A stretch of DNA of 64,000 nucleotides. Source: Uloborus diversus (taxonomy: Eukaryota). The stretch covers positions 29,428,384 through 29,492,383 of the forward strand of contig NC_072740.1 of the NCBI RefSeq assembly GCF_026930045.1, read 5' to 3'. The notes beneath the pieces are model-generated. The model ran no database searches. It was not told the origin of the DNA and saw only the letters and a program-made list of their open reading frames with translations. Made by a program: the position numbers and the translations under genes. Positions 12,361 to 46,955 of the stretch are shown here, piece after piece; position 1 is the first letter of the stretch, and each line of letters begins with the position of its first letter.

Positions 12361-12375
12361 GGCTATATAAAGCCC
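12361..12375 (+). promoter_or_regulatory. TATA box (GGCTATATAAAGCCC) about 80 bp upstream of the transposase ATG
   Basis: It is a consensus TATAAA in GC-richer context immediately upstream of the 5' leader of the transposase ORF. Confidence 0.4.
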
Positions 12376-12453
12376 ACCCTGCTGGCGCAGGACGCAGTCA
12401 TTCAATGAGAATAGTTTCATTCAGTGCTTAGTGTATTCTGAATTAAGTTTGCA

Positions 12454-14935: not shown

Positions 14936-15690
14936 AAACACTCTAGCCCTAATAATGGTATTTGCAGTAAAATTGAAAGTCTTTATAAAATCAATAAATG
15001 CGTACAGAATGTTAAATTTTCAGCATCGAAATATTTACTCTTACTTATTATATTACTATATTACTATTGTACTGTATTAATTATTTTCAAATACTTAAAT
15101 ATTTTTAGGGTGTAAGACCCAATCAAAACTCGCTATTTATGTACTTTTTGACTGAAAGTATTAGGCATACTGTACTAACTTTATCAACTGTATTAAAGCA
15201 TTAACTTTGAGATATTGTATTTCTTTAATGAACCATGAGCCTATTCAAAGTAAGCTTAAATTAGCTGTTGCACTTATTAATTTCAGTGCTATTACTAGGC
15301 AATAGCAATATTTTATGTTTTATTCTTTCAATGATAGTTTAGGATTAATTTTAATAATTCAGTCTTTTCTGAGCTATATATTCAGCGCTTTGTAATAGTC
15401 TATATGCATAATTTTTACTGTAAATTAAACTAGCATTTTACAAAAATACCATTCATGTTTTCGTATTTTTTTTCTTTTCAAAGCTAAAAAATGTATTAGT
15501 CTTGTCGAGTTTTCAGGGTTTTAATTTTGATCACATGATTCTAAATTGCTTTAAAAAAATCCCTGTAAAACTCACTAATTTTCAACTAAAATTTAGAAAA
15601 TTTCCCGGAGCAAGACACTTGGTATTTAGAAAGAAATACTTAATTAATAGTATAGTAAAATTTGGCCAAAAAATGGCCAATCCCAAGCAT

Positions 15691-15692
<2 letters not shown>

Positions 15693-15733
<41 letters not shown>
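15693..15733. repeat. poly(A)41 inside the 3' part of the hAT-carrying element
   Basis: An uninterrupted A run. It is in frame in ORF 15502-15801 as poly-Lys, which is spurious. Confidence 0.9.
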
Positions 15734-22917: not shown

Positions 22918-22983
22918 AACTCCCAGATGAAATATCTCAAGCCATATCTGTACCTTTAGAAGCAGCATTTGCTTCTCCTCCAA
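22918..22983 (+). CDS. TEP1-like gene, N-terminal repeat micro-exon A (..LPDEISQAISVPLEAAFASPP..)
   Basis: The exon is bounded by acceptor tttttgcag| and donor |gtaaat. Only one frame is open across it. It encodes a short Ala/Pro-rich module similar to exons B-E, and its phase (2 nt carried in, 1 nt carried out) joins cleanly to exon B. Confidence 0.4.
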
Positions 22984-23643
22984 GTAAATATTAAAAAAAA
23001 AGTTTTTACCTTTGATTAAATATTTGGAATATCAAGGTGCAACTTCAACAAATTGATAGATATGACTTTTATTGGAACTTACTTTTAACACATACTGTTG
23101 CTGCTAATAAAAAATGTTACATTAGTAACAGAATTACGTTAATTTCGGAGTATGTATGTGGAGCTGCTAAAATGAAGTAGTTTGCTGAAACATTAAATTT
23201 TAACACTTGACCTTGGGAAAAGTACTCTGTTATTGGCTATTTTTTGGCCTCTTAAGTAGGTCGTAGAGAAAGCAGCATTGTGCTTCATCAGGTAAAAGGA
23301 AAGCTTGTTTATAGTGATTTGACTGCATTGATTTCTAGAGTATGCAATTATGCGTGTGGAATTGGTAAAAATAAGTATTTGATGAAAACTGAAATTTTGA
23401 AATTGACATTTGTTAGTTATGACTGTTAGATATTTACACTCTGTCATGGACCATTAATTGACCTCATAAATTAGATCTACCAAAAGCAACGTTGGCCTTC
23501 ACCAGTTTGCTGTACCTTTTTTTTTGTGTTTAAAAATAATTCTATTTTTAAAACTTTATTTATTATTTAAGTAAAGAGAAAGAATAATCTAGCAACTTGC
23601 CAGTAAGAGTGCTGGCAAGTAACTGTGCTGACTGTAGAGTACG

Positions 23644-24129
23644 TACAGTAAAACCTTGTTTATCTAGGTATTTAGGTCTTCAGATTATCTGGATCAAATT
23701 TATTGACTTAAAAAAAGTATGTTCATATTGATAATTTTAAATAATGAGTGTTAAGAACGTAACTATAAGTGTGTCAAACATTTGCTTTTTATTTTGATTA
23801 AATGTACAGCTTCTGCTTAGTTTTTGCTATGAGTTATGGTGCAATACAAAACCTCTGCAACTGAACTTGATGCAAAAGCTTTAATTTTGACTGCATTTTT
23901 CAAACGATGCACGTTTTAGAATTGGAAGACTATAAACTAATTTTTTGTTAAGAACGATGTGAAGGATATTTTGATATTTTTTATGTCTTGCAACTATTTA
24001 ATTTTGCTACAAAATAGGTTTTTGTCATAATGAACTGTAAGTCTGTTGCTTATTTCTTAACCACCGCTGTTATCCGTAATTTTGATCATCCAGATTGTCT
24101 TTAGCCTAGATAAACGAGGTTGTAATGTA
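23644..24129. mobile_element. Tc1/mariner-type MITE (TIR TACAGTAAAACCTTGTTTATCTAGG)
   Basis: A TIR of about 25 bp at 23644 is matched in inverse orientation at 24105-24129 (CCTAGATAAACGAGGTTGTAATGTA). Both ends are flanked by TA. Solo copies of the same terminus (..ATAAACGAGGTTTGACTGTATA) occur at 4325-4345 and 5020-5045. Confidence 0.55.
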
Positions 24130-27100
24130 GTATGGATCTTGTGCCTTTACTTTTGGTATGTTTTTCATTAAATCTGCTTTGCTGGAATATAATACTTTTT
24201 AACAGTAGTAGTGTAATTTCAATATCATTGAACAAATCTTTTATTGCAGCCAGAAAATTAATTTTTAGAATTAAGATAATTATTTATGAAACTGATTCTT
24301 AAGAAATTTTTGCCACACATGTCAGATCGAGTTCCTTCGAGTCCTGTAAGGAAGAATACATTTGCTAGGAGTTGTGCTTTTCATCTGAATAATAAGGGTG
24401 TCATAGAGGATAGTGATGTTATACAGAGGGTGTTCACACATTGTTTAGATGATGTATATTGTATTCACAAAACTAAATTACTTAAAATTCTTGTATTTTA
24501 AATGTTCTATTTGATAGCTCTTACTGCTAGTTTCCTGCCTCTAGCGATATGCTTTGGAGAAAGATGATGCATGTTGCATTTTTTCGTTTTCTTCAGATTT
24601 GAATCAACGTTTATCATTTTGTTTACAGTGGACACCAAGCATTTTAATGACTTTACAACTGTGCTTTGACAAGGGGGATTTTCTTTTAACATCAAACAAT
24701 GTACCTTTGTAACAGTCAAAAGTATCCTTCTTTTCCTTGGATACTTGGAATTTTGGTCCCACTTGAGGCTCCAATTTGACATTTTTTTTTCCTTTCTTGT
24801 TGACGATATTACTTATATGATATAACAGAATATGAAAGTTTCTCTTCGGAAAGAGCATAAATACAGCCTTCGAACCACTGCTTCATTTAAAATGCCATTT
24901 TAAATAAAAACAAACCTATAAAACCACTAACAATAATTTTGACTTTTAAAACCATAGTACAGTTGCAATTATTCTTTTGCAGCAACCCATTTAAAAAAAA
25001 AAATGTACAAACAGCCTCTGTATAAGAGACTTCCTTGTTAAATAACAAGTATGCAGAATGGTGGGTTTTATAGATCTATTTGATATAATTCTAAGGAAGC
25101 TCTACCTTCAACTAAAGTTTGGTAAGACTTCATTTGGATATCAACAAATTCATAAGGGCTCAAAGGTGAGCATCATAGCTCTTAAAATGTATCCTTAAAA
25201 TATTCAAGTACAATGGACTCAGGCTGCTACGAGATTTGACTTACACACAATGGCTATAACACGAGTTTTTTATGAGTTACAAATTTTAGAGCTAGTAAAA
25301 GTCCTCACCAGCAGCATGAAATTTTTTGGCTTTGTAATTTGCTACTAAATATTGGTTTTGTAAATGGACTTTCATTTCTTTAGCATCACTGAAAGAAGTT
25401 CACACCCCACTATTCTAAACATTGTTTTGTTAGTGTATACAAATAACCACTCTGCATTTTTCTTTTATTTTTTTCCTTCTTAATATGAAAATTCATGAAA
25501 TATAACGGTAAATAATACCTAAGCGTGCTGCTTCATCTGAAGCTGGGAAAGAAAAAGTATCTTATAATTAAGCAAAAGGTGAAGATCATCGTTATGCAGG
25601 GCAACACTGATAACAATCTGATGACTTGAACAGCTCAGTGGCGGATACAAGGGGAGGGTCAATGTGGTCATCACCCTCACCTAAACCGTCGACAGCAGTA
25701 TCCATCCGCATTGTGTTCAAACACTTATGCGTAAATTGTAAAGGACTACAATGTCTGTTCAATTCATCAATCATTTTTGAAAGTAAGTATTTGAACTACT
25801 ACTTCGTTTCATTGCTCATAAAATTAATTTGCAATGTTTATCGCCAATTAGGTGCCTTATTCCTCGTCAATTTGGTGCTTTTTATAGACCCCCATAGCAG
25901 TTCCAGAAATTTTTCGTACCCAAAACCATAGATTTGTTCATACCCCATGAACGAATCTATGGGTCATTCTTCAACATGACCCCCCCCCCCTTAAAATGGT
26001 TTTCTGTATCCGCCTCCAATCATCGTCATCTTCTTTTTAGTTTCTTTTACAAAAAAGGAAGTATTGTATTCGCGGAAAAATGTTCACTCAAAAATTGGCC
26101 TTAATTTCCATTTTGCTCACCCTCGAATGAATGTTGAGTTTTTTTCGACCCGACTACACGTAGATATATGCCTAGGGACGTACAGACACCCGAAATATCC
26201 ATTTTGACGATCCCCGAGTTAATTACGAGTTTTCCCGTGACGTCTGTATATACATATGTATGTGCATATGTATCTCACATAACTCAAAAACTGTATGTCC
26301 TAGAAAGGTGAAATTCGGTACGTAGACTCCTAGTGGGGTCTAGTTGGGCACCTTCCCTTTTGGTTGCATTAGGATGTTCTTAAGGGGGTCTTTTACACCT
26401 TTTTGGGGGGAAATCATTGTTAATTTCAATGCTAACTAAAGTGGTGTTATAATTTGTCAAACACTTGGCGATATATCACCAAGCTTTTGACAGCTAAGTT
26501 TAGTTGCCAACTTGGCAAAAAATTTGGCTTTTTTTTTTTTTTTAAATTTTTTAAGTCTGGTTTTAGTTTGGCCAATGTTGGTGATATTTAAAGGGTTAAC
26601 CACTGAATCACTTTAAAATTGCCAATAATGGGGAAATAAATCTGTGTAAAACTTTTTTTTGCCTCGGCTCTCACGAAACGAGAGGTGAAAATATTTAGTG
26701 TTTCCTTGCTTACTCTAAGGCGCTATTATCATTAAATTGGCGTAAAAGGAAGTCATGTGATGCACACATCAGCTGGTTTTTTTAGTAGTAATTACTATTG
26801 CTTGTAGTATTATGGTACTGTATTTGATTATTTTAATTAGTGTTTATCGTACATGCAGTGTACATAAAAATGATTACTTATTTTATTTATATGAATAACT
26901 TTATTTGAGAAAGATTTCATAAAAATGAATAATAATATTCAATTAGCTTAGTATGAGAAAGTCAATCCTCCTGATTACAACATCATGAATAACTGCTCTG
27001 ACCAGATGGATATAGCAATTAAGTATGAAAAAATGCAGAACTATTAATTTCTTTTGGATTTTCACAATTAAAATTCTTAATCGTTTGCTCATTTTGAAGA

Positions 27101-27297
27101 CCATCAATAAGGAAAGTTTGACATTTTTACTCCTCAGTAGAGGAATCAAAATGTCTCCTCAGAAGCTGAAAGAATATTTCTCGTACAAATACTGAATTAT
27201 ACTCAATGTTGAAAAATCAATGAGTATTTTTTAAAATGTGCATAAAAATTCTGTGTTTAATTATCCTCATTTACATATTCTTGATTGTTTTTTACAG

Positions 27298-27366
27298 CAG
27301 CTACCTTTGGTTCAGCGCCTAATTCTCTTTTTGGCTCCCAGAAAAATTCATTTGCTTCACCTGCAG
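27298..27366 (+). CDS. TEP1-like gene, repeat micro-exon B (..ATFGSAPNSLFGSQKNSFASPA..)
   Basis: It has acceptor ttttacag| and donor ctgcag|gtaaat. The frame compatible with exon A is open. It encodes an FG/SP-type repeat motif. Confidence 0.4.
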
Positions 27367-28914
27367 GTAAATAAAATTTAAAACCTTGTAACATTAACTA
27401 TAACAGTAGTTAGATAATGGTCCAATTTCAAAAATAATGGTTGGCTTAAATTGTTTTAACAACTCATTTCTTGTAATTTTACATATACTAACTGTGAAGT
27501 TTATGTCTAGATCTGCTAAAAGAAATTATTACTAAAACATGAAAGTTTGATAGAGGTATTTCTCGAAGTACTATACCATTACCTAAATTACTCCGTTATT
27601 GTTGTAACGGTCTTGGTTTTGTCATGTTCTTGAATTGATTTGCTGGGATTAAAAGCAACAGCTACAGATTGTAATTTCAGCGGAAGAACTTACGAAAAAA
27701 AAAAACACAAATTTTATTATTTCCTCCTCCTCCCTTTTCCTTTAAATTCTTATGTAGTTATTCTCAGCTCATTGGGCTTGTAAATGTGGTCTTGCTGAAA
27801 TTGCTGTTGTCATTTCTTTCTAGTGTAGTCTTAGAAAATGAAATTCAATAATGCAGCAACAGTTTTTGTTGTCGCGAACATTAAATAAAAATGATTAATT
27901 TAATAATAATAAAATACATAAAGGCTGGAACAGATCCATAAGTTACATAGATGTTCCAGTACATGCAAAATACGTAACAGCATGGAGAGATTCGATGAAT
28001 TAAATAGCTTATGCACTAGTGCTCATCTGGAATGGTATTTTTATGAATTTGTTGCTCAGTATATCCTCGATAAACCATCCCGTGAAAACTTTACCGTACT
28101 TTTGATTTTATTTTTCTTATAGATTATTTTATATATTTTAAATGCCAAGGACACCATAAAATGGATGATCTGATTAGAAAAAAAAAATATTTGTATCAAA
28201 ACTTGATTTTTATCCCTGGCCATTTTTTGACATATTACTACTTACACAAATAACTGGTTACAAGTAATAGATCCCAAAACATGTACCAATGTGTGAATTG
28301 ACATAAAAGTTAGAAATTTAAATAATGAAAAGGGGATTCTCATAGCTTTCCTTTCGCAATGTTGCATGGAGGACATTATTTTTTGTACAAAGTACAAATT
28401 TAATCATTTTTTTTTTGGGGTACAATGCTTTGCCAGGGTCTTAGAGAGTAGTAAGGACTGGTTCATTTCTTTGATCTTTTAGTTTCGCAGCCTTTCTGCT
28501 GAAAGGGGGGAAAAAACGACTGTCTCTGATGCCATTCTGGAAGCACTGACTCGCGTGTTTCAGTGTGCTTATTATTGATCACTCTTTCAATTTTAATTTT
28601 TCTGCTGGCTCTATTTATCACAGGAACTCTCCATGCCCATGCCCTGGGTATGAAATTTCTATGGAACTGGAGAATTTTTTATAATTCATCTAAATTCTTT
28701 TTCGAAAATTGGACCAGGGCTTTCATACATAATTCTTTAATTCTTAGTGTTCTTTCCTACCCCCCCCCCCCGTTTTGTGCACGGTGTGTGCATTCTGTAA
28801 TGAATTTAAAACACACAAAGCATAAACGCGTAAAATTGCTATATATTTTAAAAATCTTTGCTATGATTACTGTATACTCCGTCAGTTATTTAAACAGTTG
28901 CGTTCAATAGCAGA

Positions 28915-29770
28915 TTCAAAAGGGGGGGGGGGGGTAAGGGGGCTATTCCCCCCTTCGATGTCCAAACTTGCACTAGATAAAATCAAAAATTTTGAGACTT
29001 TTAATGCTGCAATACATTTGCGAATTTAAATGTGCATTACATTTAAATATAACTACAATATATAGTGGCATATTAATAGATGGCAGGGGGGGGGGGCTAA
29101 GAGACTGTACCCCTCCCATTCTTCCATTTGGTCAAAGCTTAAAACAGATTAAATTTTGATCTGTGCAATGGAATGAAAAGGCATGAAGGTTACATTCTGC
29201 AATCGTTTTTTTTTTTTAATCTCAAATTATAATTTTCAAATTAAACTACCATAAATGTTTAACTTCTATTTAGCGAGATATAGCCCCCTCCCTCCATGAA
29301 GTCAGAAATACCTCTAAAAAACCCAAATTTAAAAGATTTCAAATATTTCAATACTTTTCCGAATTTAAATATGCAATTTATTTAAATAAATATATACACT
29401 GTGGCGTATTAATGGTGAGTTGTGGGGAGGGGGACTAAAAGAACTGTAGCTCCTTCTTCCATTCAGTCAAAACTTACAACAGATTACAATGTGATTTGCA
29501 ATAGCATGGGAAGGCTTGGAGGAAATAGCTTCGTCCTGATGCCATCAACGTTTTTTAGCCTGAAGTTATCAATTTCAAACTAACACAGTCATATATTTTA
29601 CTTCTTTCTCAGGCTAATGGGGCTATAGTCCCCATCCCCCTCCCAATGAGGTCAGAACTCGCACTAGATAAAACCGAATTTTCGGGGATTTTTAATACTG
29701 CATTACCACAAAGAGAGCTTAAAACTTTTTCGGAACATTTTGTTGAGTGAGCCCCGCTTCCCAACAATGT
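28915..29770. repeat. About 330 bp degenerate tandem repeats, each headed by a G/C homopolymer (G12-13 / C-rich) + GCTAT(A)GYCCCC..GCACTAGATAAAAYC..TTTTAATRCTGCAWTAC
   Basis: Two to three unit copies start near 28921, 29280 and 29590. They have poly-G runs at 28921-28933 and 29086-29096. Confidence 0.5.
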
Positions 29771-31650
29771 CATCAAAGATTACTTAAAATTGAATTTTTA
29801 TTACACTATTTTCGATTATTTCTGATGAAAATTTTCTAGCTTTTTTTTTTTACAATTAACATAATCGTCACCCCTTATTTGGACAAACATGGAATGAAAC
29901 TTTATTTTGGCGTTTCAATTTCAAACTACTTTTGGTGTGAAACTACACCTATCTATATTTATCGTCGCCTAAGTGAGCTTTAAAATATTTTTTTAGACCG
30001 GAAGGCCCCCGAATCTCCTTTCCCTAACAATATCATAAAAATGCTTAATATTGCTTTTCTAGCTTTATTGTCGAAATTTAGTAGGGAAAGTCCTCAAACA
30101 CTGTCTGTGCCTTTAATGTGACTAAAAAAAGATTCATCTACAGGCCTTCAAGCTTGAAACATTTCCTTTGGAGACAACCCATTCCATCAAAATATAAATC
30201 AAAATTGTGTTTTCAGAACTTCAATTTCAAAACATTTCAGAAGACAGTCCCGAACCCCAACGCATCTTCTAGCATCGCCCGAGAGAGCCTGAAATGCATT
30301 TTTAAAACTTCGATTTCGAAAAAGTTCTGTAGAAGATCTCCAAACACTCACTCTTTTCCTAATATTACTATAAACCATAGAAGGAATTGTGCCTTTAAAC
30401 TTCAATTTCCAAATTTAGCCAAAGAAGATACTCAAATTCTTCTCTACTCACTAAACATCTTTAAACACAGACAAATTTTTGCGCTTCTAAGACTTCAAGT
30501 TTTGTAAATTTCCGGAGGTTTCCCCGAGCACCTCCCCCATAGTATCAGCACAGATAGCTTTAAATTTCGTTTTAGAAAATTCCTCGGGAGAATCCTCAAA
30601 CATTTTTTCTTGACATACAACCTGAAAATGACTTCTTGAAAGAGATTTCGGGAGGGAAGGAGGCTAATAAATTCAAGAGGAAAGAATCTTGGGAAAGATA
30701 GAAGGAGTCCTCTTTCCTCTATCTTTCCCAAACCTAAACCTTAAGTCACATCTTTAGGACCTCAATTTGGAGAAAAAAAAATCGGAATAAAGAACTGACA
30801 TCACTTTTGTGACATTAGGAGATCTCCCTAACGTTGACAAAGAAAGCGTACCGTTGAGTTTTTTTCTAACTTTAAGGTCAAAAAGCTTCCAGAGACAGCA
30901 CGTGAACAATTTCAATTTCCCAAACAAAAACGCCACCTTTTGAACACTTAGTTGTTAAAATATTTTCATAAAAAAACGTCCAAATCTTCCCATTTTCTAA
31001 ATTTAACCAAACATTAACTAAAATTAAGTCTTTCAGACTTCACTGACAAAACTTTTCCGAAGAGTGCTCTTCATTTCCTAAACGTCACCAGTTACAGCCT
31101 AAATTGGAGTGTTCAATGTTGAAAAACTTCTGGAGGAGAGCGACCAAGTAATGTAAATTCACCAGAAGTTGCATAAAACTCCTTCTTAATGACTCTAATT
31201 TTGAAAATTTTTCAAAGTAAATCACCAAAGAATCCTCCTAACGTCCCCAAAGATACTCTATAATCTTGTTTTTCCCAGTTCTACAGCGAAAAACTTTGCA
31301 GAGAGAGACCCTGCACCTTCCCAGTCACCTTAACGTTATCACATAGAGCATAAAAATGCGTTTTTGACCTTTTATTTGTGCAAAATTTCTGGAAAGAGCA
31401 TTTGATCCCATAATATCACCCGTGAAAACTTGAAATTGACTATAGTAAGGAAAAATACTCGGGAAGGAACCTCAACCCCTTCTCACCTAACTTTACCTCT
31501 AAAACGTTCCGAAAATTGCGTTTTTGATATCAATTTTTCAAAATTTCTACGAGAGGGTCCTGACCCCCTTCATGCATCCGCTTCTTTTTATTACCTTTCT
31601 CCAGCAATAGCTGGGGTATACTGTTTATACCTTAGCTTTTATCTTCACTT
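29770..31650. repeat. Degenerate intronic minisatellite, about 100 bp unit, >15 copies (..TTTCNGRARAG..TCCTCAAACA.. core)
   Basis: The motif reads ...aaatttccggaggtttccccgagcacctcccccatag.../...aaattcctcgggagaatcctcaaacattttt.../...tttctacgagagggtcctgaccccc... It recurs with a period of about 100-110 bp through the exon B-C intron. Confidence 0.5.
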
Positions 31651-33205
31651 TTTCCATAGGGAGTCATACCATGTTTGCACACCTCTTTCTGTTACGTGAA
31701 AATATTTTATCTACCAATGTGATAATCAACTCAGCTTTATATGAGGTTTTTTGCCTGAGCATGGTTTTAGCTACTCCAGACTCATGAGCATAAAGCTAGA
31801 GCACAGCTGCAATCTCTGGATGCTGCAACTGACCTTTCCGATGTTTTTTCTTGCAATTCAGTCTTAGCTTTGGCCATGGGGTGGTAATTTGTAGCTTTAT
31901 ATCTGAGGTGAATATAGTGTTCATGAAATTATTTATATTCTTCAGTATACTATATAAGTTTATTTCAAGTAAAAAGCTGTATTTGAAGTCATAAATTATT
32001 CAGGAGAGGAACCCCTTGGAGAGAAAATTTCATATTGTTTAAACAGAGGTGTCTGTTCCTCTAAGAGTGATGCCTCCCCCAGGACCCGATTAAGGTATCG
32101 GGTGCCCTAGGTCAAAGTTTTTCGGAGGCCCCCCTGGAGCTAAACCATACAATTTTGGTCATTGGATAAATTTTTTTAGTCAATTGGGGGCCTCTAAAAA
32201 GTGGGGAGTCAATGCCACGGCCTAGTCAGCCTGTTCAGTAATCAGGCCTTGCCTCCCCCCCCTTGCGAGATTGAGAGTACCTGCAAAAACGATGAAAAAG
32301 ACCCTCTAAAACAGTGACTCCCAACTTGGACCGAGGTTAGTCCCCCCCCCCCCTTGCTCAAGTTCTAGATCTCTTACTGGTTGTGTTCCTAGTAAACCTG
32401 GGACTTAAATTTTCGCTGTCGCCCCTCCACCCCTCCACTTCCTCCCCCAAATTAATATTTCATATAAACCAGACCAAGTTTCAAAACCAAATGTTCAGAC
32501 CAAGTTTCAAAACCAATATTAATTTATGTGGTGCAAAGAATGTTAACATTAAAAGCCAAGCAAAAATAGATTGAATTTTACATAAAATTCACATTAGACA
32601 CATACATAGCTTCAAAGTTGCCCCTCCATGCACTGTTGTGCACTTTGTTTGCTGAAATTTAATATAGAAAATAAATTTTAAGATTTTTTAGAAAAATTTT
32701 CAGATTTGAAGCATAAATGTTTATCCATAAACTCTTAAAGCCATTTTGTATTTCACTTGGGGTGGACCTCCCCTTCTGCCCTCCCGTAGTGATGCTACTG
32801 ATTTGAGGTAATTTTGATTCATCACTTCTCTATATTTAACTATCCCACTCATATTATTACATTTATTGGCCTAAAATTGAAGAAAAATATAATGTAGAGC
32901 ATATTTATCCAAAATTAATGAACAATAATTATAAAATGAGTTATTAACCTGCTTCAAAGCTGTCCTGTTGCTTAGGGCAACTTTGAGCCTCATGAGAAAG
33001 GTGATGTAAGAAAAATAATTTGATATTAGTACTTCAACTTAGAATTGGACAAAAAATCTAAATATTTAATCCTAAATTTTTATTTCTAAAAGTTTGTAGT
33101 TTATAAAACTTATTTCAAATGTTCATCAGTGCTTGTGTTAAATTAGCTCTTCATCAGTGTTTGTGTTAAATAATATTTCTATGTTTTTGATAGTTTTTCA
33201 GGAAG

Positions 33206-33271
33206 CTGCCTGCAGTTCAGTATCTTATGCTCCACCTGCACCTGGATTAAATTTTTTGGCTGCACCTAGAA
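33206..33271 (+). CDS. TEP1-like gene, repeat micro-exon C (..AACSSVSYAPPAPGLNFLAAPR..)
   Basis: The donor is gaa|gtaagt. Two acceptor AGs lie 4 nt apart (ttttcag|gaag|). Only the downstream AG (exon start 33206) keeps the reading frame continuous with exons B and D. Using the upstream AG (exon start 33202) gives a stop codon in the exon B-D reading frame. Confidence 0.35.
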
Positions 33272-33311
33272 GTAAGTATTCATAAAAAAAAGTTATACCA
33301 CTTTTTAAATT

Positions 33312-33471
33312 CAGTAAAACCTGTAAAGTTGACCACATGTCTAAGTTGACCGTTATTCTTAGGCACAGAATTAGATCTATCATATATTTCAACCTCTATA
33401 AATTGATCACCTGTTTAAGTTGACCACCAAACTAGTGTACCGCAAGTGGTCAACTTAGACAGGTTTCACTG
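33312..33471. mobile_element. 160 bp MITE, Tc1/mariner-like terminus CAGTAAAACCTGTAAAGTTGACCAC
   Basis: A 26 bp imperfect inverted repeat sits at both ends. The right end reads GTGGTCAACTTAGACAGGTTTCACTG. Confidence 0.5.
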
Positions 33472-36400: not shown

Positions 36401-37002
36401 CATCTAGTTATAAAAATGCCTTTTACCTCTGAATAAAGCTCTAAAATCTCTTATAATATGTGTAGAAAACATTTCTTATTGCTAAAAACGTATGTTGTAC
36501 AAAAACATTTGAATACTAAATAATTTTTCAAAAATGATATCCTTAATAAAGTTTGGTTATCTTAAAGAACTACTTCAGGAAATTTAAACTGAAGGAGTAG
36601 ATTCAATTGTTCTTAAGTTATTGTAAGACTTGCAAACAATTAAGTTTTGCAAACTAGTACCAAATATTTCCCATTTGAATAAGGCAACAGTATGGTGATT
36701 CTTAAAATGTTTCTCTCAAGTGTTCTATGTGTATATATATTTTTTTTTTTAAATACCTAATTGCATTGCTAACATTAGCTGGTGTTTTGACATTTTTTCT
36801 AAATTTGAACCAACTGAATGTTAGGTCCAAATTGCAAATAATATTTTGCTACTATTTAGTTTTCTTCTATTTTCTCATTCATAAGTCTTGTATGTAGCTT
36901 ATGTTTACTAAAAAATCAACATGTTTGAAATGTTCAATTGTATAAAATTTATTTATAATTAGTTAAATTAATTTCCTTTGTATTTTTTAATACTATTTAA
37001 AG

Positions 37003-37050
37003 CTGATGCATCATTCTTTTGTCTTCCACCTTCTGCAGCCAGAAAACAAG
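37003..37050 (+). CDS. TEP1-like gene, micro-exon D (..DASFFCLPPSAARKQ..)
   Basis: It has acceptor tatttaaag| and donor caag|gtaaat. The open frame is phase-compatible with exons C and E. Confidence 0.35.
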
Positions 37051-38439
37051 GTAAATATCTTTAAACAAGTTATGCAACTATTTATTCTACATCAAGATTA
37101 TAAAGGTAGAACTTCTATTGTGCAAAGAAAAATGTGTTTCTTGAAATGTTATAAGTACTGATTGAAAACTGGATGCATGAAAGATGCTGAGAAAAGTGAT
37201 TGCTGAAACTTAACAGTGGTATTATGTAAAATACTCTACTGCTTGTTGATTGTTAGCCTGCACCAATAGATATTATAAACACAGCACATCTTTTTCCAGT
37301 TTATTTCTCTTTTTGTATTGCACAAATTATGTTTTTTGAACTCTTTTAATACTTTGTGTAAGGCAAGAACAATTTGATAGGATAGTAGTGAGGTTTGATG
37401 CTGCATTAAAAAGATTGTTATATTTGAACTCGGCATCCTTTTGCAGTATGTCATACAACAGTTTCATTTTTGATGCTAAATTTTTAATAATCATCAATAG
37501 TAATTAATCATACGGGTGAAAACTCTTTAAGGGATATAGAACATGAAAAATCTACAAAAGAAATACCCTTAGTATTTACATCAATTTTGTTAAACCGTTT
37601 TCACCAAAGTATTTAATACTATCTTTAAAAAATCAATTTAGTTATTTAATTTAATCTAAAACAACTCATTTTACAATCTAGGCCTAAAGCCTCCCTATGT
37701 TTTAAATGCTCCTTTTTATTCCTCCCTGTAACTAAAATGTCATCTAGGAAATTGTTCGCATTCCAGGCTTTGTTAAGTATTTGTAGAAAATATCCATGCA
37801 AATCCATAGGTTTGCCTGTGCTCAAAGACGCTTTTCGTTTCTGCAAATCGACCACCATAAACTTAACTATCGGCTCAATTTCGTTAGATGCTTTTTTTGC
37901 ATCGTAGATTCGATAGCTTTGATGTTGATGTTTGGTTGGCTCGTGGCAGTTTTGTTAGCAAGAGTAACTTGGAAGCTCTTGCAGTTATAGAATGGAAATT
38001 AGTTTGATTTATTTTTTAGATAATTTCCTAACATTTTCTTTAGCATTTCTAATTATCTTTTTTAAAATAGTGCAAGCTACTTTAATTCCAAAAGGTAAAT
38101 GATTAACTGTTTAAATACTATAAGGTGTGTAACTTTTTTATTTCATCTTCCAAACCTAATTGATCATGTGCATTATACAAATCTAGTTTACTGAAACTTT
38201 TCCCTGTATGTAATGCAGCAAAAAGTTCCTCTATTCTTGTTTAAAAGATAGGTACCATATTTCAAATATTTGTTTACAGTGATTCATTATGCACAGACTA
38301 TTATGTATTTGTTATTAGCTTTCAATACAGGTATAAGAGTGTTCTTCACTGAGAATTGTCTATTTTAGAAATCCCCCTCCCCTTTCTCTAATGAATTGGG
38401 AGATTTTGCTAAAAGGGGCATTTAAACAAAGGCAACAGT

Positions 38440-39010
38440 TTCTCAATAGTGTTAGCAGTCCGTATAAATTTCCAGTTTAATTTCGACATTAGTTCCTAAA
38501 AAATCATTACTTGAGTGAGCACAACAGTCAATAAAACCCCCGTCAGAGTAAAGACAACAGTCCCTAAAAATTCCCATTAAAGTGAGGACAGAAGTTCCCC
38601 AAACTCTCAATAAGAAAGAGAAAGACACTCCTTAAAATTCCCTATTAGGACATGTTTCTGAAAATCCCTGTTAGAGTAAGAGTTACAGTTTTCAAGTATG
38701 TAACATCAACAGTCTTTCTAAAAATATCTATCTTGATAAGGGAAATAGCTCAAAAACCTTTTTCCGAAAGAGAAAAAATTTCAAAATAGCAATGTTGTTT
38801 TTTTTAAACCCCATGTAACATTGTTGTGTGTATTGTAGCAGTAGCTTCAAAAAAAAAAAAAAAAAACTCCTTTGTTTTAGTTCTCCAAAAGTCCTCATTA
38901 GAATATCAACGTCAGTCCCTCAAAATCCACAACAGCATCAACCATTCTGAAAAAACGTATACGACAAATCTATAAGTTCTGATTAGATTAAACTTAACAG
39001 TGGAACTCCA
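38440..39010. repeat. Degenerate minisatellite, about 36 bp unit (CAGTCCCTAAAAATTCCCATTAGAGTGAGNACAA), about 12 copies
   Basis: Units such as cagtcaataaaacccccgtcagagtaaagacaa / cagtccctaaaaattcccattaaagtgaggacagaa / tccttaaaattccctattaggacatgtt are visibly related. Confidence 0.5.
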
Positions 39011-41360
39011 ATAATGCTGCAAAAATCCTTGATTATCTTCTGCAGACAGTTAAAAAAAAAATGTGAAAATATAATCAGAGGGAAATTTTTAAATTCTGCC
39101 ATTACTGAAAAAGCCTCAAAGCAAAAACAAGAATTTTATTTGTTCTCACTCAAGCAAAAAGTGGCAAGATATGTTTATTCAGGTATTTTTTCTCAATAGT
39201 TTCTTCATGCTAATTTTAGCACAGTTCCTGCTGATGATAAATTTTCAATTTAAAATTGAGTTTTACTTAAAAATGATCGTATTTTTTTCTGGTTAATTTA
39301 GGTGCTTGGAGTTTTCAAATCCATAGAAAATTTTTTTCTAAAGGCATATTTTTCATGGGCTATCCAATGGAACTAAAATTGAGATGATACGATATTTATT
39401 TCAGGTAAAAACAACCATTTTATGCCAAAAAAAGCTAAAATTAAAAATTGAAAGATTCAGTGGGTTTTTATTGATGAAAGATATTCTCAGTGAGGGCTGA
39501 AGAGAGGCCATGTCAGCCTAGCCAAAACTAAGGACCCAGCCCTTTTGAGGATCTGGCTAGGAATTGAAGTAGAATAAATTATATAAGTTTTATGACAGGA
39601 GGGTGACCTAGCAACCAAACTGATGAGAGACTTACCTTGGTTCTCAACTGCCTTGCCCTCTGTTCTATTCTGCTCTCCTGGTAATGTTTATGCAAAATTT
39701 CATGATGATCAGTTGAGTAGTTAGGGTGTAAAACGTTTCAAACACACAAACTCACTTTCACATTTATAATATCAGTAAGGACTCTGTGTACAATTCAACT
39801 CAGTAAAAATAAATTTTCTTGGAACACATTTTTTTTTTCTTATGCTTTTTTTTTCATTTTTATTTTTCATATTACCTATTCTTAAAAATATTAGCAATTT
39901 CCCAACTATGTTCAATTCTTTAAGTTTATATTACTCTGTTGGAGCATTAAATGGTGTTATAAAATTATTCTTATTAGTTTAAGTTGATTTTAAATGTTTT
40001 GTGTTTTAAAGGTATGTAACAGATACTTCCTCTTTATTACTTGGTATTTTTAATGATTCATTTACACAACCATTGTTGTTATAATTATTGACTTTGCTTA
40101 GCCAGTTCCAAAACTTTAGATATAGATTACTACTTACAGGTTATGTATTCACTTTTCTTATGAAAGTATTTGTGTTTAAAATGCATACAAGAAGTTCAAT
40201 GTTTGTGGATCGATGAATCAATATTATGGATGTTTTAATTTTGAACATCAATGTTTTTGACATATGGATATTTTTATCGATGTCGAGCCACTAGTGTCTT
40301 GAGCAATAGCTAGTCAGAAGACACGTGATCCAATTTTTTAAATTTATTGAAATTGAAGACGTTTATGAGCTTAACATCTACACAAATTTCACAATCTGGG
40401 ATCATTGTTTTAAGGTTTTCAAATCTGAAAATCAATTGCAACGTTTAATGAAAACTGCTGCTACTTTCAATGGCATGAACTGTTTCAAGAGGGTTTTTGA
40501 TCTTCATTGAAGATCAGTAAATTGACTGGTGCCCTCCTAGCTGTGATTAAAGCTTTTTCTTTGGTTCTCTTTTTTTTTTTTTTGTTTGCAATTTATTTAG
40601 AATTTTAATTTTTAATGAGGCTGTTTCTTCCTAAAATTTAAGTTAATGTATGCCTGGTTAGCAAATTAGTACCATTTGAACTTAATTAAACTGTTTCTCC
40701 TTTAAATAAAGCAACCTCGTTTTGACTCTTAAAATATTTCCCTTAAACATTCAAGTATTAAAGAGATTTTTTAAAAAAATAAATATGACCTTGCTAACAT
40801 TAGTTGGTGATTTAAATTTTTGTCTAAATTTAGGGGTATTGAATAGACAGTATTTTGGCAAAGAGCAAATTGTTTACTAGTCTTTTATGAAACTTGGAAT
40901 TTATGATTGCATATAAATGAAAATTACTGAATTTGAGGAAGTTAATGTTTTGCTTTCAGCTGTTTTGAATAATTAATTTAACCAGGTAGGTACAATGTTT
41001 AGCCTAGATGTATTTTCAAATCAAAAGTCAAGTATTATACTTCATAACCAGGAATTTCTCTTGAACGTTCACAATGTAAGTTGCTAAATATAGGTGCAGT
41101 GTCAAAGACCAACAATTGGGAGGGTTTGTTTTTCTGACTGCTTTTGAGGAAAGATTATTTTTGGTGCAAATACTGAGTCCTATCACTCTTAAAATATTAA
41201 TGAAGATTATTTAAAATGTATATGATGTCTGTTGTCCATGTTACATTATTTCCATGTTAAAGTATGAAAAAAATAATGAATATAAAAAAATAGTTGTTGT
41301 TAAATTATTTTCCTTGCATAACTTTATTTCTTTTTAAAACACCTAATTTTTTTCATTTAG

Positions 41361-41396
41361 CTTTCATTCAAATTGGTTTACCTGCTCCGCCTGGAG
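41361..41396 (+). CDS. TEP1-like gene, micro-exon E (..FIQIGLPAPPG..)
   Basis: It has acceptor tttcatttag| and donor ggag|gtaaat. It is phase-compatible with exons D and F. Confidence 0.35.
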
Positions 41397-41443
41397 GTAA
41401 ATATCTTACAAAACTTGATAACATTAATTCAATGCTACATATA

Positions 41444-42019
41444 CAGGGTGTCTCAAAAGGTCATTGCCAAGTTGAACATACACGGGTCTGTCATAACTTG
41501 ACAAACAAGATTTACATAGTAACTTGTGTCCGAAAATCTGAGCAGCGATAGCTAGAGGGCAGGCTGATGGGAGAGTAGGAAGCGTGATCATTTCAGATGA
41601 TGACCTTGCAGGAGAATGATGAATCGGATTTTTAATGAAGAATTGTCTGATATGATTTGGCCAAAATGACATCAGACACAGATCTCATCGCCAGGATGGT
41701 AGAAGCAGCAGCATGTATCCGTGACGCACCTGCGCATTTTGAATGGCTCCGTGAATCCATGCACCGACGTTGTGAAGCTTGCATTGTTGCAAATAGAAGG
41801 AATTTTGAACATTTTCCGTAATTTAGTTATAATCTTTAATGAGAAAACATATTGAAACCTCTTTCGGCATCATTTCTTTCTCTCCCTCTATGCCTACAAA
41901 CATTTCCCTCTAGCAGTCATTGTTCACATTTTCGGACACAAGTTCCTATGTTAATCGTTTTTGTCAAGGTATGACAGACTAGCATATTCAGATTGGCAAC
42001 AACCTTTTGAGACACCCTG
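41444..42019. mobile_element. 576 bp MITE of the CAGGGTG long-TIR family (TIR CAGGGTGTCTCAAAAGGTCATTGCCAA)
   Basis: A 27 bp terminal match is followed by a second subterminal inverted block (GTCTGTCATAACTTGAC...CTTGTGTCCGAAAAT). There is no ORF. It inserted 48 bp downstream of exon E. Confidence 0.65.
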
Positions 42020-42500
42020 AAAAATCAATGAAAATTTAAATATAAGAGTGGTTTTTGATTGATTTACATTTTGCATCCGTTGCTGAAACTCAAAAAATGC
42101 TCTTGTTTTCAAAATTTTAAGTATTTTGATTGTAAAATTTATGCATAGAGAAGAGATATTAAAAGAAAGTTATACTTCTTAAAGTACTTCTACTACTACA
42201 TTATTATGTCAATAGCTCCCGTATGAAGCAACATGATTCTTTACTGATTCTATTTGTATATTTAAAAACAAATAAATAAAAATTTTAATTTTGATGACTT
42301 TGTTAATATTTTGAGCAGAGCAAAGAATAATCTAGTATTCTAATATTAAGAATTTGATGCTGTAATGAAGAGCTACTTATCTACTAAATATGGAATTCAG
42401 ACATTAAATAAGGATTATTTTACCCACTTTAACTTAAGCAATATCTTAATGCTGTAAGAGTTATTGCATATAGTGTCTCTATATAGTGTATACTAGTGTG

Positions 42501-42502
<2 letters not shown>

Positions 42503-42568
<66 letters not shown>
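42503..42568. repeat. (AT)33 microsatellite
   Basis: A perfect dinucleotide run. Confidence 0.95.
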
Positions 42569-42571
<3 letters not shown>

Positions 42572-43429
42572 CATTAGTACATTTCTTAGAAGTCCTAAAA
42601 AGTCTTTTTTTTTTTTATTCCAGATGTTTATTTTTTTCTGTTATTTTTATTTAAGTTTCATAATTTTCTGATACCATATTTTCCAGCAGAAGAAGTTGCT
42701 CTATCACGAAGCAATGCCAGGCCATCCTGATAGCCCCACCATATTTTATTTTTTCCTATCTCTTTATCAGGGGTGCCATTTCTCCCTATTATTTAGTCTT
42801 CCACATTTCTTAATAAATTATCCCTTCCTCAGCGCTTTTAGACTTTCCAGTTGTGGAATTAATGCAGAAATAAAGTACTAATGCTTTGGAAAGAAATTTT
42901 GAATGAATTAACCTAACAATACTAATAATTTTAGTATTCAATTATCCATAAGCTGAAGCTTTGGCCCACATATTTGGCAACATTTTTGGAACCTGCTCCA
43001 TACAATTGTACAACAGTTTCATAAATTTGAATTGTTGTTTTTCTCCCCTAACAATATTTTATCTGACTAGCTTGTTATTTTAGTTTTCTAATTGGAAAAT
43101 TATACTATTAATAAAGCTAAATGTTATAAAACAAATAAAATTACTTTTTGGCTACTTTATTTGTGCTTAAATATGCTGAACATGTAATCCACGAAAAAGG
43201 TAAATGATTTTGAAGAATATTCAGAGAAGCTAACTTTCTCTGAAAGACAAAAATACTTTTTCTCCCAGTTTACATTCGCGGCCATGTTTTTGATATATAT
43301 ATATATACACAAGGGTAAATGGGAAAGTAACCGCCGTTTGGGTCTGGTGCTGGAAGTACGTTTCAGAGCACCCTCAATCAAATGCACAAGCAATGTGCAA
43401 TCCAATAAGCTTCCAGTGAGCAAGTGAGA

Positions 43430-43870
43430 GTGTTGTAGGGCCGAGAGTTCACTAGTTATAACACGATATAATGTGTGTCACCATAGAAAATCCTGCAAAC
43501 TGTGAGGTGCAGGTAGTTTTGGACCAAAAAACTGTCAGCAGCAGCAGATATCCATTGTGAATTGTGTGCTGCTCACTTGCTCGATAACATGCTCCTTCAT
43601 ACCGCTGTAAGAACAGGAGTTGATTTTTGGTAATTCAAATAGGATAAGTTTCAACACTCTCCCTACAACACGGACTTGACTCCTTCTGATTGTCATCTGT
43701 TCACTGCAATGAAGAAGTGACTTGGAGGACAACATTTTGCTGATAACAAGGAACTTAAAAATGCTGTGACACGTTTGTTAAAATTGCAGGCAGCCACTTT
43801 TTATGCAGAAGGAACTAGTAAAACGGTATGACAAGTGCTTGAATAATGAGGGTGACTATGTTGAAAAATA
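43430..43870 (+). mobile_element. Internally deleted mariner-like element (transposase C-terminal part only)
   Basis: The translation ..LLHTAVRT.. FQHSPYNTDLTPSDCHLFTAMKK*LGGQHFADNKELKNAVTRLLKLQAATFYAEGTSKTV.. matches the mariner blocks HDNARPH, PYSPDLAPSDYHLF and ..FY..GI.KL. An in-frame stop is present and the N-terminal part is missing. The bounds are approximate. Confidence 0.55.
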
Positions 43871-44839
43871 GAAGAGAATAGTGCCTTTGATGTGTAAAAA
43901 TTTTTTCCCACTGTGCTGGTTTGTTTTTTACATCAATTCATAGTTCACTTTGTGTATTGCCCTCGTACCGTAAACTGGGGTTACTTTAGACTGACGGGGT
44001 AACTTTATAAAAACCTGTTTTTTATTTTTGAACCATTCTGGTGGGCTTAATTTTACAATTGGCGACCCCCTGGTGGTCTCAGGGTTTCAAGAATCACTTT
44101 TCAAAGTGTGCTGACATCGCCAATTGATTAAAACAGTAAAATAGTTTTGGCAACACTGATTTATGTGGGGATGGGGTAACTTTATTACAAATCACTGAAA
44201 CAGTCGTTTTAGATCGAGAAAACACGTTGTTACAAAGTAACCCCGGATGATGGGGTAACATTAATAAAAAAAAATGACCCCCTCCCCCCCTATTCAAAGC
44301 TATCGTTTGGTTCAAGAACTGTTGAAATATCTTGAAAAATGAGGGTGCTACAATACAAAATATGCGAAACCTGTATCAAAGTAACCCCGGTTTACGATAT
44401 ATATTTATATATATTTATATGATTTTAGTAGTTTGGACTTTTAACTCTCTGACGGTCTTGGGCCATGAGTAAGAATCGTGAAATTTTTTTTTGGAGTAAC
44501 CTGCCATGTAAGTAAAGTGCACTACCTTCTATCAATGCTTAGCCTCAGACTGTTTGGCAACAAGCATTTAGCATCAGAAAAATAAGTAAAATGCTTTCGA
44601 AATGTGCTCGCTATGGCGTGATAAGAAGTTCAAAAATATCGGAGAGTTCAAACGTGCAGTGTTCTAGCTTTGTGCACAAAAAGATTGCAAAACTATTCTA
44701 GTTGCAAACAATTTCCTGATTTTTCACTTTGTGAGGTTGGTAACTCTGCTTATTTATATTTTAAATGTTTTGTACAATATTTCAAGTGAATATGAGGTAA
44801 AGTGGATGTAGCAAAGTGAAATAGTTTATTTCCCTAATT

Positions 44840-45070
44840 TATTCAATGATTTATTAAATGACACACATATTCATTTTTTAATTAATTCATTTGCATTCGT
44901 TCATTTAGTGACTCATTAGTTTATTCATTCATTTATTTTCTTGTTCAATTACTATTTTATTTGCTCATTTATCTGACTCATATATTAGTTAATTAATTTA
45001 TTTGCTGATTATTTCATTCTCTAATCATTTATTCATTCATTCATTTATTTACTCATTCATTTGATCACAA
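44840..45070. repeat. (TTCATTCATTTAT)n-like simple repeat
   Basis: tcattcattt / ttcatttatt motifs are reiterated across about 230 bp. Confidence 0.7.
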
Positions 45071-45706
45071 ATATTTTTGATAATCAAATAGGAAATATTT
45101 CACTTGAAAAATATTTTTTTTTTTAAATTTTGCTCCATGAAAAAAAAAAAAAAAAGTGAAAATTTTCCCCTTTTTTTAAGGTACAAATTTATTGCCAAAA
45201 ATAAAAATTATGTTTTAATGCAAGTTTCATAAAAAAAAAAAAAAAAAAAAATACATTGCTCTTGCTTTGTGTACTGTAATTTTAAAAACAAGTTTCCATT
45301 TAGTTCATCTTGGAAAAGGTGCTCTTTTTTCATTTGTTGTTCAAAATAAATGATTTGAGTATTCTAGCTGAAAGTGTTGTTGAAAGTTTATAATGTTCTT
45401 TACAAGAAAAATTTTCGACACTGTAGCATAAATTTTCTCTAGTACTAAATGTGTGATGTGTGAAAGTGCAATGTTTAATGTTAGCTCAACAGTTGAAGTA
45501 ATCCAGATGCACTGTTTATCAATTGCCTTGATTTATTCATAGGGATATATGCTCTGAAAAAACATTTGACATCCCCATCAAAATGTTTTTAAATGTTAAG
45601 TGAATTCAGGTTAAGAAAATATCTACTCCTCAATTAATTTTTATTTGCATTGTTGATGATAGTTTATATGCATCAGTGTATTTAATTTGCATTATTTTTA
45701 AAAAAG

Positions 45707-45867
45707 GTATACCACAAATGCAAGTTCAGGAAATTAATGAAATGCCATCATATAACTTCAAGCTAGATACTGTATCAGAAGTAAAGCAATCAAGTTTATT
45801 CTTATCACTTGATGAACAGCCTGATGCACTACAGTTAAAGAATGCTCAAAAAAACAAACTAAAAAAG
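45707..45867 (+). CDS. TEP1-like gene, exon F (GIPQMQVQEINEMPSYNFKLDTVSEVKQSSLFLSLDEQPDALQLKNAQKNKLKK)
   Basis: It has acceptor ttttaaaaaag| and donor aaaaag|gtattt. It is 161 nt, and after the 1 nt carried over from exon E it gives 54 codons with no stop. It leads into the TROVE-like exons. Confidence 0.5.
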
Positions 45868-46237
45868 GTATTTATGAATTTCAAATTAAACATTTTTGCT
45901 GTTTTTTTAATGCCATTATGTTGATACAGTAAGTGACTTTAACATTACTATGTCCAATACTGCTCTGCTAAGCAAAGGAATGTTATCTGCAGCTGAATTT
46001 AAAAAGTTTCATACCTTCATTTACTTGTTTCAGATGCCACTTAATTATTATTTGTTCCCAATATTTCCTATTTACATGCAATGGCACATTGTATTAAATT
46101 GCTGAGAAAGAACCAATTTGGGGACAGTAACTCAATTCTGTGAAGAATTGCAGATACAACTTTTGTGCTTAGCATGGCAGCATAGTTTTTCTCTCTAGTG
46201 TGAAAAAAAAAGGATTTTTTTTCTTCTTTTTTTGCAG

Positions 46238-46372
46238 ATTCAACTTTTGAATATTACAAGCTTGGCATTAATGTACTCTGCCAATCTTAAAAGTCCATGT
46301 GACGAATATAGGTTGTTGTTGAAAAAATGTGCTGATGATGTTCGACAATTAGATCCAGAGTTTATTTTGAAG
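46238..46372 (+). CDS. TROVE-domain exon G (IQLLNITSLALMYSANLKSPCDEYRLLLKKCADDVRQLDPEFILK)
   Basis: It has acceptor tttttgcag| and donor ttgaag|gtacc. It is 135 nt in phase 0. The ..DEYRLLL.KCA.D..QLDPEFILK motif matches my recollection of the segment just upstream of the TEP1 TROVE core. Confidence 0.6.
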
Positions 46373-46793
46373 GTACCATGAATCTTTGTTTTTCTAAAAC
46401 AATGTTTTACATTAATTTAAGATATTTTGCTAGTTCATAACTCTGAGCTCTTTATGTGGTTTTTCGTTTGTTGAGTCATTTTATGACAAAGAATCTCATT
46501 TCGCAAATGGTTCTAGCTTGATTGTTTCTAAATTCGTTGAAGTTTAAATGAAAATTTCAATGTTCCTTGATTGTTAAAGATTAATTTTAGCTGAATATCT
46601 CCCTTTGTTGCATTGCTTAAACCTATAATTGTCATAAAGATCATATAAAGAATTGATAAGAATCAAGTGCATATGTTGCCTTTATTGTTTCAATTCTAAA
46701 ATACTTTAATGATTCATACATGTAAAAAATGTTCAATATGTTTTTTGTAAATGTCTTGAAAGCAAAATAGAGCTAATAAAATTTACTTTACAG

Positions 46794-46955
46794 GTTGCAC
46801 TTTATGCACGTCAAGAACTTCATATTAGATCTGTTGCAAATTTCCTGCTTTCTTATGCAGCCTTCTATGAAAGTACTCGTATATTCTTGGAGAAGTATTT
46901 TAAAACTAGTATAGTTTTGCCATCAGATTGGATTGATGTTGGAGAGCATTACCAA
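46794..46955 (+). CDS. TROVE-domain exon H (VALYARQELHIRSVANFLLSYAAFYESTRIFLEKYFKTSIVLPSDWIDVGEHYQ)
   Basis: The acceptor is tttacag|. The 162 nt open frame carries the characteristic TROVE block LYARQ.L.IR..AN..L..AAF ... LPSDWI.V.E.YQ, as recalled from vertebrate TEP1. The donor is a weak gtacta. Confidence 0.6.

Follow-up and report, generated by a model that had tools for sequence, protein, structure and literature searches.

Two questions are raised by a 64,000-nucleotide (nt) stretch of the Uloborus diversus genome (assembly GCF_026930045.1, contig NC_072740.1, positions 29,428,384 to 29,492,383 of the forward strand; hereafter the window, numbered from its first letter): to which gene its TROVE-type exons belong, and how the short peptides encoded upstream of them, rich in Phe-Gly (FG) and Ala-Pro (AP), came to lie one to an exon between introns of several kilobases. 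The initial annotation had taken the two together as one TEP1-like gene (22918-46955) whose repetitive N terminus had grown by exon duplication. TEP1 (telomerase protein component 1, also vault protein p240) belongs to the vault and telomerase ribonucleoproteins. We find that the window quite probably holds the 5′ part of a TEP1 ortholog, in which the linker preceding the TROVE domain is encoded by symmetric micro-exons that appear to have spread by local exon duplication. The gene is an ordinary ortholog with an exon-intron habit typical of its clade, and it leaves what is known of TEP1, vaults, and telomerase unchanged.

Identity of the TROVE-domain gene

The joined translation of exons A to J matched the Pfam TROVE profile (PF05731) at E=7.5e-26 (91.7 bits; cut-off, 23), aligning to profile positions 7-152 of 442; exons G and H alone gave E=2.3e-17. 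Of this RNA-binding domain, exons F, G, H, and J together supply the first third. When TEP1 and Ro60 proteins were scored side by side, spider TEP1s reached 157-178 bits and other TEP1s 105-135 bits (105-178 for TEP1s altogether), whereas Ro60-type proteins remained at 19-34 bits. The TROVE match and the bit scores far above those of Ro60-type proteins identify the gene as a TEP1 ortholog, in agreement with the TROVE-type, TEP1-like gene first proposed. Ro60 and bacterial Rsr (TROVE plus vWA, about 500 amino acids [aa]) belong to the same TROVE fold family and are without the TEP1-specific motifs.

The nearest proteins are the TEP1s of other spiders (Araneus, Trichonephila, Caerostris, and Nephila). 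An exhaustive HMMER search of a library of 1.84 billion representatives returned 393 matches, many of the top ones 2300-3100 aa long, and those named by their source are TEP1 or TEP1-like; the best match is the Nephila pilipes “telomerase protein component 1” (GFS98075.1, P0001; 52% identity), and a Tachypleus TEP1-like protein is among the others. Two further library proteins have the TEP1 architecture by Pfam, with TROVE, DUF4062, and TEP1-specific propellers: P0003 and P0002, the latter translated from an 8.3-kb transcript contig (Logan SRR2155568) and with NACHT on its record. Public spider TEP1 models end at about 600-820 aa; the transcript-derived P0002 reaches 2612 aa. A sequence search of the PDB gave chance matches only (dynactin, FAF1) and very weak TROVE chains. 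The G+H peptide (99 aa) had no match in a word-indexed protein search, where alignment A1 matched only two proteins; that no closer relative emerged there carries no weight, because low-complexity words of the alignment seem to overwhelm the index.

Exons G and H are 57-65% identical to the TEP1s of Araneus ventricosus, Nephila pilipes, Trichonephila clavipes, and Caerostris extrusa (exon G, 57-64% to spider TEP1s; exon H, 62-65% to chelicerate TEP1s), whereas the aligned N-terminal and early TROVE region as a whole is only 39-45% identical. The motifs “EMPxYxF”, “DPEFILKVAL”, “LPSDWI”, and “FSKFDEYQL” are shared with these proteins. Exon F matched Caerostris at E=0.0015 in a local search and was also matched by tblastn. 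The TEP1 architecture is TROVE-vWA-DUF4062 (a TIR-like NADase)-NACHT-WD40 (bioRxiv 10.64898/2026.05.01.722283). No more TEP1 exons were found in the window downstream of 57589, and the remainder of the gene, past TROVE position 152, therefore lies outside it. Judged by homology, the protein most likely acts as TEP1 does elsewhere.

As in vertebrate TEP1, a repetitive, non-globular N-terminal region stands ahead of a homologous TROVE domain (the TEP1s of shark, reptile, and amphioxus were matched); unlike the ~30-aa TEP1_N repeat of the vertebrate protein, however, the FG/AP modules are 12-23 aa long and of low complexity. The TEP1_N profile (PF05386) found nothing at E<=10 in the A-F or A-J peptide. 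The modules thus differ from the vertebrate repeats, as remarked earlier, and do not correspond to them. It found nothing at E<=1 in the scanned spider, P0002, and horseshoe-crab TEP1 proteins either, and it appears to be limited to vertebrate-type repeats. A motif farther upstream in the spider orthologs, “T-x-T-K-N-K-F-L”, would on our reading be a likelier counterpart of TEP1_N than the FG/AP modules.

Exon structure and support from orthologs

The window is AT-rich (~32% GC) and resembles a large metazoan genome, with short coding islands set in long introns. Exon bounds were read from the DNA around each peptide, and all of the exons are bounded by AG and GT on the plus strand (Table 1); a weight matrix for splice sites did not work for exons H and J, which are genuine, and was abandoned. 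The peptides quoted in the initial annotation were recovered on the plus strand: FASPP at 22968-22982, FGSAPNSLFGSQKNSFASPAG at 27306-27368, YAPPAPGLNFLAAPR at 33226-33270, LPPSAA at 37023-37040, GLPAPPGG at 41375-41398, DEYRLLL and DPEFILK within 46301-46372, and LYARQELHIR, ANFLL, LPSDWIDV, and EHYQ within 46800-46955. FSKFDEYQL is present as well, but it lies at 57562-57588, 10.6 kb past the end that had been given for the gene.

Table 1. Exons of the TEP1 gene model and the paralogous intron segment, in window coordinates
Feature	Position	Strand	Length and phase	Encoded peptide	Splice sites and remarks
Exon X	11078-11200	+	123 nt, phase 1-1	KGKLRRKAQLRECHPFEADYSTDSSSDLRSQSRSRSLSRA	AG/GT bounded; basic, Ser/Arg-rich; outside the range first annotated
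Micro-exon A	22918-22983	+	66 nt, phase 1-1	(E)LPDEISQAISVPLEAAFASPP	Strong polypyrimidine tract, CAG acceptor, GTAAAT donor
Micro-exon B	27298-27366	+	69 nt, phase 1-1	TATFGSAPNSLFGSQKNSFASPA	AG acceptor, GTAAAT donor
Micro-exon C	33206-33271	+	66 nt from AAG acceptor, phase 1-1	AACSSVSYAPPAPGLNFLAAPR	AAG acceptor, strong GTAAGT donor
Candidate micro-exon D	37003-37050	+	48 nt, phase 1-1	TDASFFCLPPSAARKQ	AAG acceptor, GTAAAT donor; least certain exon
Micro-exon E	41361-41396	+	36 nt, phase 1-1	AFIQIGLPAPPG	TAG acceptor, GTAAAT donor
Exon F	45707-45867	+	161 nt, phase 1 to 0	GIPQMQVQEINEMPSYNF...LQLKNAQKNKLKK	“EMPxYxF” motif; TROVE profile begins here
Exon G	46238-46372	+	135 nt, phase 0-0	IQLLNITSLALMYSANLKSPCDEYRLLLKKCADDVRQLDPEFILK	TROVE
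Exon H	46794-46955	+	162 nt, phase 0-0	VALYARQELHIRSVANFLLSYAAFYESTRIFLEKYFKTSIVLPSDWIDVGEHYQ	TROVE
Exon J	57472-57589	+	118 nt, phase 0 to 1	VLAVEAKKKCFTLHLHTSFPSALRKVLKNSFSKFDEYQL(G)	TROVE; outside the range first annotated, after a 10.5-kb intron
Intron segment upstream of E	40638-41230	+			Mosaic of D-side and B-side paralogous pieces (blastn, nhmmer)

Joined in order, exons X to J form a single uninterrupted open frame. Exon X and all of the micro-exons have lengths divisible by three (3n) and phase 1 at both ends, exon F passes to phase 0, exons G and H are 0-0, and exon J is entered in phase 0; the compatible phases claimed for the five micro-exons were thus found, in one frame with F to J. 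Since every micro-exon has a 3n length and the same phase, copies could be added, lost, or skipped without breaking the frame. The micro-exons resemble one another in GC content (0.44-0.45 in C and D), against 0.33 in the surrounding introns, which measure 3.7-5.8 kb between A and F (4-6 kb as stated earlier). The D-E (37051-41360) and E-F (41397-45706) introns are both exactly 4310 nt, the A-B intron (22984-27297) is 4314 nt, and start-to-start spacings of 4380, 4358, and 4346 nt occur; these near-equal lengths are probably coincidental. Open Ala/Pro/Gly-rich segments at 32106 and 43331 were considered as further exons and rejected, as they have no splice sites, are GC-rich, and look repeat-like.

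Spider TEP1s share one order of segments: a Lys-rich/SRSRSRS block corresponding to exon X, an FG/AP-rich stretch, “EMPVYxF” (exon F), and TROVE. Exon X is collinear with the “KKKKK...SRSRSRSRS” segment in the Araneus, Nephila, and Caerostris proteins; its pairwise matches to the orthologs are weak when taken alone (E about 20-30, local phmmer). The clearest counterpart of a micro-exon is that of A, in which LPDEISQAISVPLEA matches Araneus IPEEISECISAPFGA (Araneus exon 6, IPEEISECISAPFGAF, score 43); the match has P=0.0014 against random intronic open reading frames (ORFs), and 0/5000 shuffles reach its score. Exon A also matches the transcript-derived P0002 (P=0.014). Exon B resembles the FG stretches found in Caerostris and Nephila, with P=0.015 when compared with intronic ORFs and 0.06 with shuffles, and GLPAPPGGIPQM, across the E/F junction, resembles Araneus GAPPPGFGAIPKM.

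The gene structure of Araneus offers a second line of comparison. The A. ventricosus TEP1 protein (P0158) was mapped onto its own genomic locus (L001, assembly GCA_013235015.1); its exons 4-8 measure 33, 138, 78, 51, and 111 nt, with introns up to 8.5-10 kb, and the junctions between exons 3 and 9 are all in phase 1. In position and phase, F/G and G/H coincide exactly with the junctions between Araneus exons 9/10 and 10/11. Because Araneus shows it too, the layout of one small symmetric exon per module is a trait of the spider TEP1 family and not an artefact of exon picking. Spider TEP1s have in common a basic, SR-rich segment followed by an FG/AP stretch before TROVE, and small phase-1 N-terminal exons separated by multi-kilobase introns; Araneus differs in having exons of 78, 51, and 111 nt where the present gene has five of 36-69 nt. 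Spider genomes are characterized by short exons and long introns (PMC4273655), and the architecture of the locus is therefore expected.

The initial annotation had also suggested a lineage-specific, low-complexity N terminus. The FG/AP-rich stretch is absent from horseshoe-crab TEP1, but it is common to orb-weaving spiders rather than unique to this species; the modules form a linker downstream of a Lys-rich and Ser/Arg-rich exon. Residues 195-244 of N. pilipes TEP1 consist of three consecutive “A-x-(V/L)FGS-x-A-x-x-P” modules, and the number of FG modules varies among Nephila, Araneus, Caerostris, and the present window. From the three “A-x-FGS” repeats of the Nephila protein it follows that module number changes independently in different spiders.

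Proposed local duplication of micro-exons and competing explanations

The proposal of exon duplication was examined with local alignments of each exon and 60 nt of flank, for which exons X, F, G, H, and J and random intron pairs served as controls. The pairs A-B, A-C, B-C, and B-E scored 24, 29, 31, and 28, whereas all 35 pairs that include a control exon or exon D scored <=18, and the 95th percentile of random intron pairs was 15. When each unit was searched by blastn against both strands of the entire window, A, B, C, and E proved to be reciprocal best non-self matches (E=4e-7, 1e-5, and 3.5e-6); the best non-self DNA matches of exon B are A and E, the E unit matching B at E=3.5e-6. In a multiple alignment the copies stay in register at acceptor and donor, with ~45 nt of upstream and ~30 nt of downstream intron included. 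Similarity also extends farther into the introns: 26946-27252, upstream of B, resembles 40926-41230, upstream of E (~300 nt, E=6e-9), and 36613-36816, upstream of D, resembles 40638-40841, again upstream of E (~200 nt, E about 1e-8 by nhmmer and up to 7e-20 by blastn). The mosaic segment that these matches define before exon E looks like a relic of a duplicated unit; no other copies of the B-E or D-E intron segments were found in the window. Whole-intron comparison of the ~4.3-kb units gave no diagonal similarity, and the trace of duplication is therefore confined to ~100-700 nt around the exons.

These alignments support the view that A, B, C, and E are derived copies of one another, produced when an exon was duplicated locally along with its splice-site flanks, and that the intron beside D belongs to the same local duplication history. 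The earlier proposal stands in this form for four of the five micro-exons; exon D itself shows no similarity to the others. Among the Araneus exons no paralogy was found at the DNA level, a difference from the present locus, and exon G is the sole exon with DNA similarity between the two species (score 46 against Araneus exon 10).

Low-complexity regions of collagens and the PEVK region of titin are known to derive from tandem duplication of symmetric exons (same phase, 3n). The present gene shares with them short same-phase 3n exons, paralogy of the splice flanks, and a copy number that varies between related species; it differs in having only about five, strongly diverged copies, in a protein not known for such repeats. 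In the mechanism that we propose, the basic Ser/Arg-rich exon X would be followed by the tiny phase-1/phase-1 exons A-E coding for the low-complexity FG/AP-rich stretch. To judge from its composition, this stretch would be disordered and would link the N-terminal region to TROVE, and such a linker would tolerate the gain and loss of modules.

Two of the micro-exons have tandem acceptors. In exon B the sequence CAGCAG (27295-27300) offers two acceptors 3 nt apart, both in frame, of which the second gives a 66-nt exon from 27301. The acceptors of exon C, noted earlier as lying 4 nt apart, are present as CAG/GAAG/C (33200-33206), and only the AAG at 33206 is in frame. The tandem acceptors of B and C are homologous, and measured from the second AG, exons A, B, and C are each 66 nt long, which fits the duplication history. 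In both exons the tandem acceptors may serve alternative splicing coupled to nonsense-mediated mRNA decay (NMD), and exon C may be an alternatively used or a poison exon.

Several observations weigh against the account given so far. The same filter for splice sites and frame yields ~7 junk candidates on the plus strand and 5 on the minus strand between 11.2 and 45.7 kb; since pseudo-exons are not rare, the case for A-E is built on homology and paralogy rather than on splice sites by themselves. The better acceptor of exon C, the CAG at 33202, leads to a 70-nt exon, a frameshift, and a TAG stop. The ortholog matches of C (P=0.10 / 0.50) and E are compositional only (shuffle P=0.39-0.50 for both), and exon D resembles neither the orthologs (P=0.72 / 0.96) nor the other micro-exons, its evidence being its frame, GTAAAT donor, GC content of 0.44, and duplicated intron context. 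Exons X to J were modeled from genomic sequence only, their support at transcript level being indirect and coming from the homolog P0002, and the spider ortholog proteins are themselves computational gene models. A search between X and A (11.2-22.9 kb) for counterparts of Araneus exons 4-5 gave nothing, and one of 1-11077 did not yield the first exons, which in the orthologs carry the “TSTKNKFL” motifs. Finally, the vWA/DUF4062/NACHT/WD40 part lies beyond the window, which covers only the first ~330 residues.

Some of these points favor a narrower account, possible though doubtful, in which not all of the micro-exons are used: A and B, and probably E as well, would be constitutive, and C, D, or both would be pseudo-exons or skipped cassette or poison exons. 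Besides the missing homology of D, the better acceptor of C, and the pseudo-exons of comparable splice quality in the same introns, it is favored by the single 111-nt exon that Araneus has in place of C, D, and E, and by the symmetry of all of the exons, any of which could be skipped with the frame kept. On the other hand, the alignment of C with A and B keeps its register through the exon and the flank on either side, and C retains the frame and its GTAAGT donor; D likewise keeps its donor, an open phase-1 frame, and the duplicated intron context, and the GC content of both is like that of A, B, and E and not that of the introns.

A more far-reaching proposal is that in this spider lineage TEP1 has recently expanded, by serial duplication of ~66-nt phase-1 exons, an FG/AP module that is nucleoporin-like and disordered, which may give TEP1 or the vault ribonucleoprotein a new property, for example, the ability to bind nuclear transport receptors, to enter the FG phase of the nuclear pore, or to form condensates; the CAGCAG acceptor of B and the acceptors of C could then tune the number of modules or act as an on/off switch through NMD. 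We regard this as improbable. The window peptide has no match to PF13634 or to any nucleoporin domain at E<=10, and the N terminus of Nephila TEP1, at 13.9 bits, stays well below the cut-off of 32.2 (Nucleoporin_FG, E=0.1), for which reason the FG-like character is insufficient for a nucleoporin-like label.

The same weak Nephila match, the FG-rich composition, and the in-frame ATGs of exon F might suggest instead that the micro-exons belong to a separate upstream gene, for instance an FG-nucleoporin-like one, and that TEP1 starts at or near exon F. We consider this very unlikely: the spider TEP1s and P0002 carry X-like, A-like, and FG segments together with TROVE in the same order in one polypeptide, the phase is continuous from E into F with no evident stop or terminal exon between them, the A-F peptide has no Pfam match at E<=10 (Nucleoporin_FG included), and the upstream exon X fits TEP1 too. 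Equally hard to credit is that the exons are fragments of a repetitive element in which splice-like sites and an open frame occur by chance. It is true that A, B, C, and E are alike down to their non-coding flanks, in a locus that contains transposable elements, but the copies lie on the plus strand only, one per intron interval and inside the gene, and none besides these turned up in the remaining ~40 kb of the window or on the minus strand. Araneus TEP1 contains a specific ortholog of exon A, and every copy keeps the frame and phase.

With the micro-exons read as a duplicated linker of TEP1, the value of the locus lies mainly in annotation. TEP1 spans >100 kb in spider genomes, and micro-exons of 36-69 nt in introns of 4-6 kb are easily overlooked by gene finders; the window provides a worked example, with coordinates, of their recovery by phase logic, collinearity with orthologs, and paralogy. 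It is also one more example, on a small scale, of disordered protein sequence that grows through duplication of symmetric exons, and it indicates that the pre-TROVE linker of TEP1 is fast-evolving in chelicerates.

Transposable elements and simple repeats in the window

The introns had been described as filled with transposable elements, which could barely be demonstrated for those between A and F; clear elements are found only in the X-A intron and downstream of J. Within the A-F introns, a sub-threshold RVT_1 remnant at 37649-37858 on the minus strand (E=0.045), a short ORF with a “...DDILVTGRNKKEHLKH...” motif in the D-E intron, is probably a decayed retroelement. An inverted-repeat pair (41486-41559 and 41906-41979; 74 nt, 85% complementary, 346 nt apart), which starts 90 nt after exon E, looks like a miniature inverted-repeat transposable element, and 41987-42019 matches 41444-41476 in inverted orientation.

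The X-A intron holds the remnant of a hAT-type transposon (12371-14935, plus strand), in which a hAT dimerisation domain (E=1.9e-7) was recognized together with a weak zinc-finger match (zf-C17orf113, E=0.004). It contains a perfect tandem duplication of 295 bp (13425-13719 and 13720-14014; 100% identity), through which a portion of the transposase ORF is present twice and which is either very recent or an assembly artefact.

Downstream of J, a long interspersed element (LINE) at 60652-63507 on the minus strand has an intact 951-aa ORF that combines an AP-endonuclease (apurinic/apyrimidinic type) with a reverse transcriptase (RVT_1, E=1.2e-36). Immediately upstream of this ORF, on the same strand (63561-63989), a 142-aa GDSL-lipase/esterase ORF (E=1e-12) represents an esterase-type ORF1, and the element may still be active. 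Its presence accounts for the strongly negative GC skew at 60-64 kb. The intron after J also contains the helix-turn-helix remnant of a Tc1/mariner-type transposase (58538-58951, minus strand; HTH_Tnp_Tc3_2, E=6.5e-6, below the Pfam cut-off). Simple repeats comprise an A-rich run at 15690-15730, which gives poly-Lys when translated in several frames, and at 42486-42600 a (TATA/ATAT)n microsatellite (“YIYIYI”); both give spurious tblastn matches to the Lys-rich part of TEP1 orthologs.

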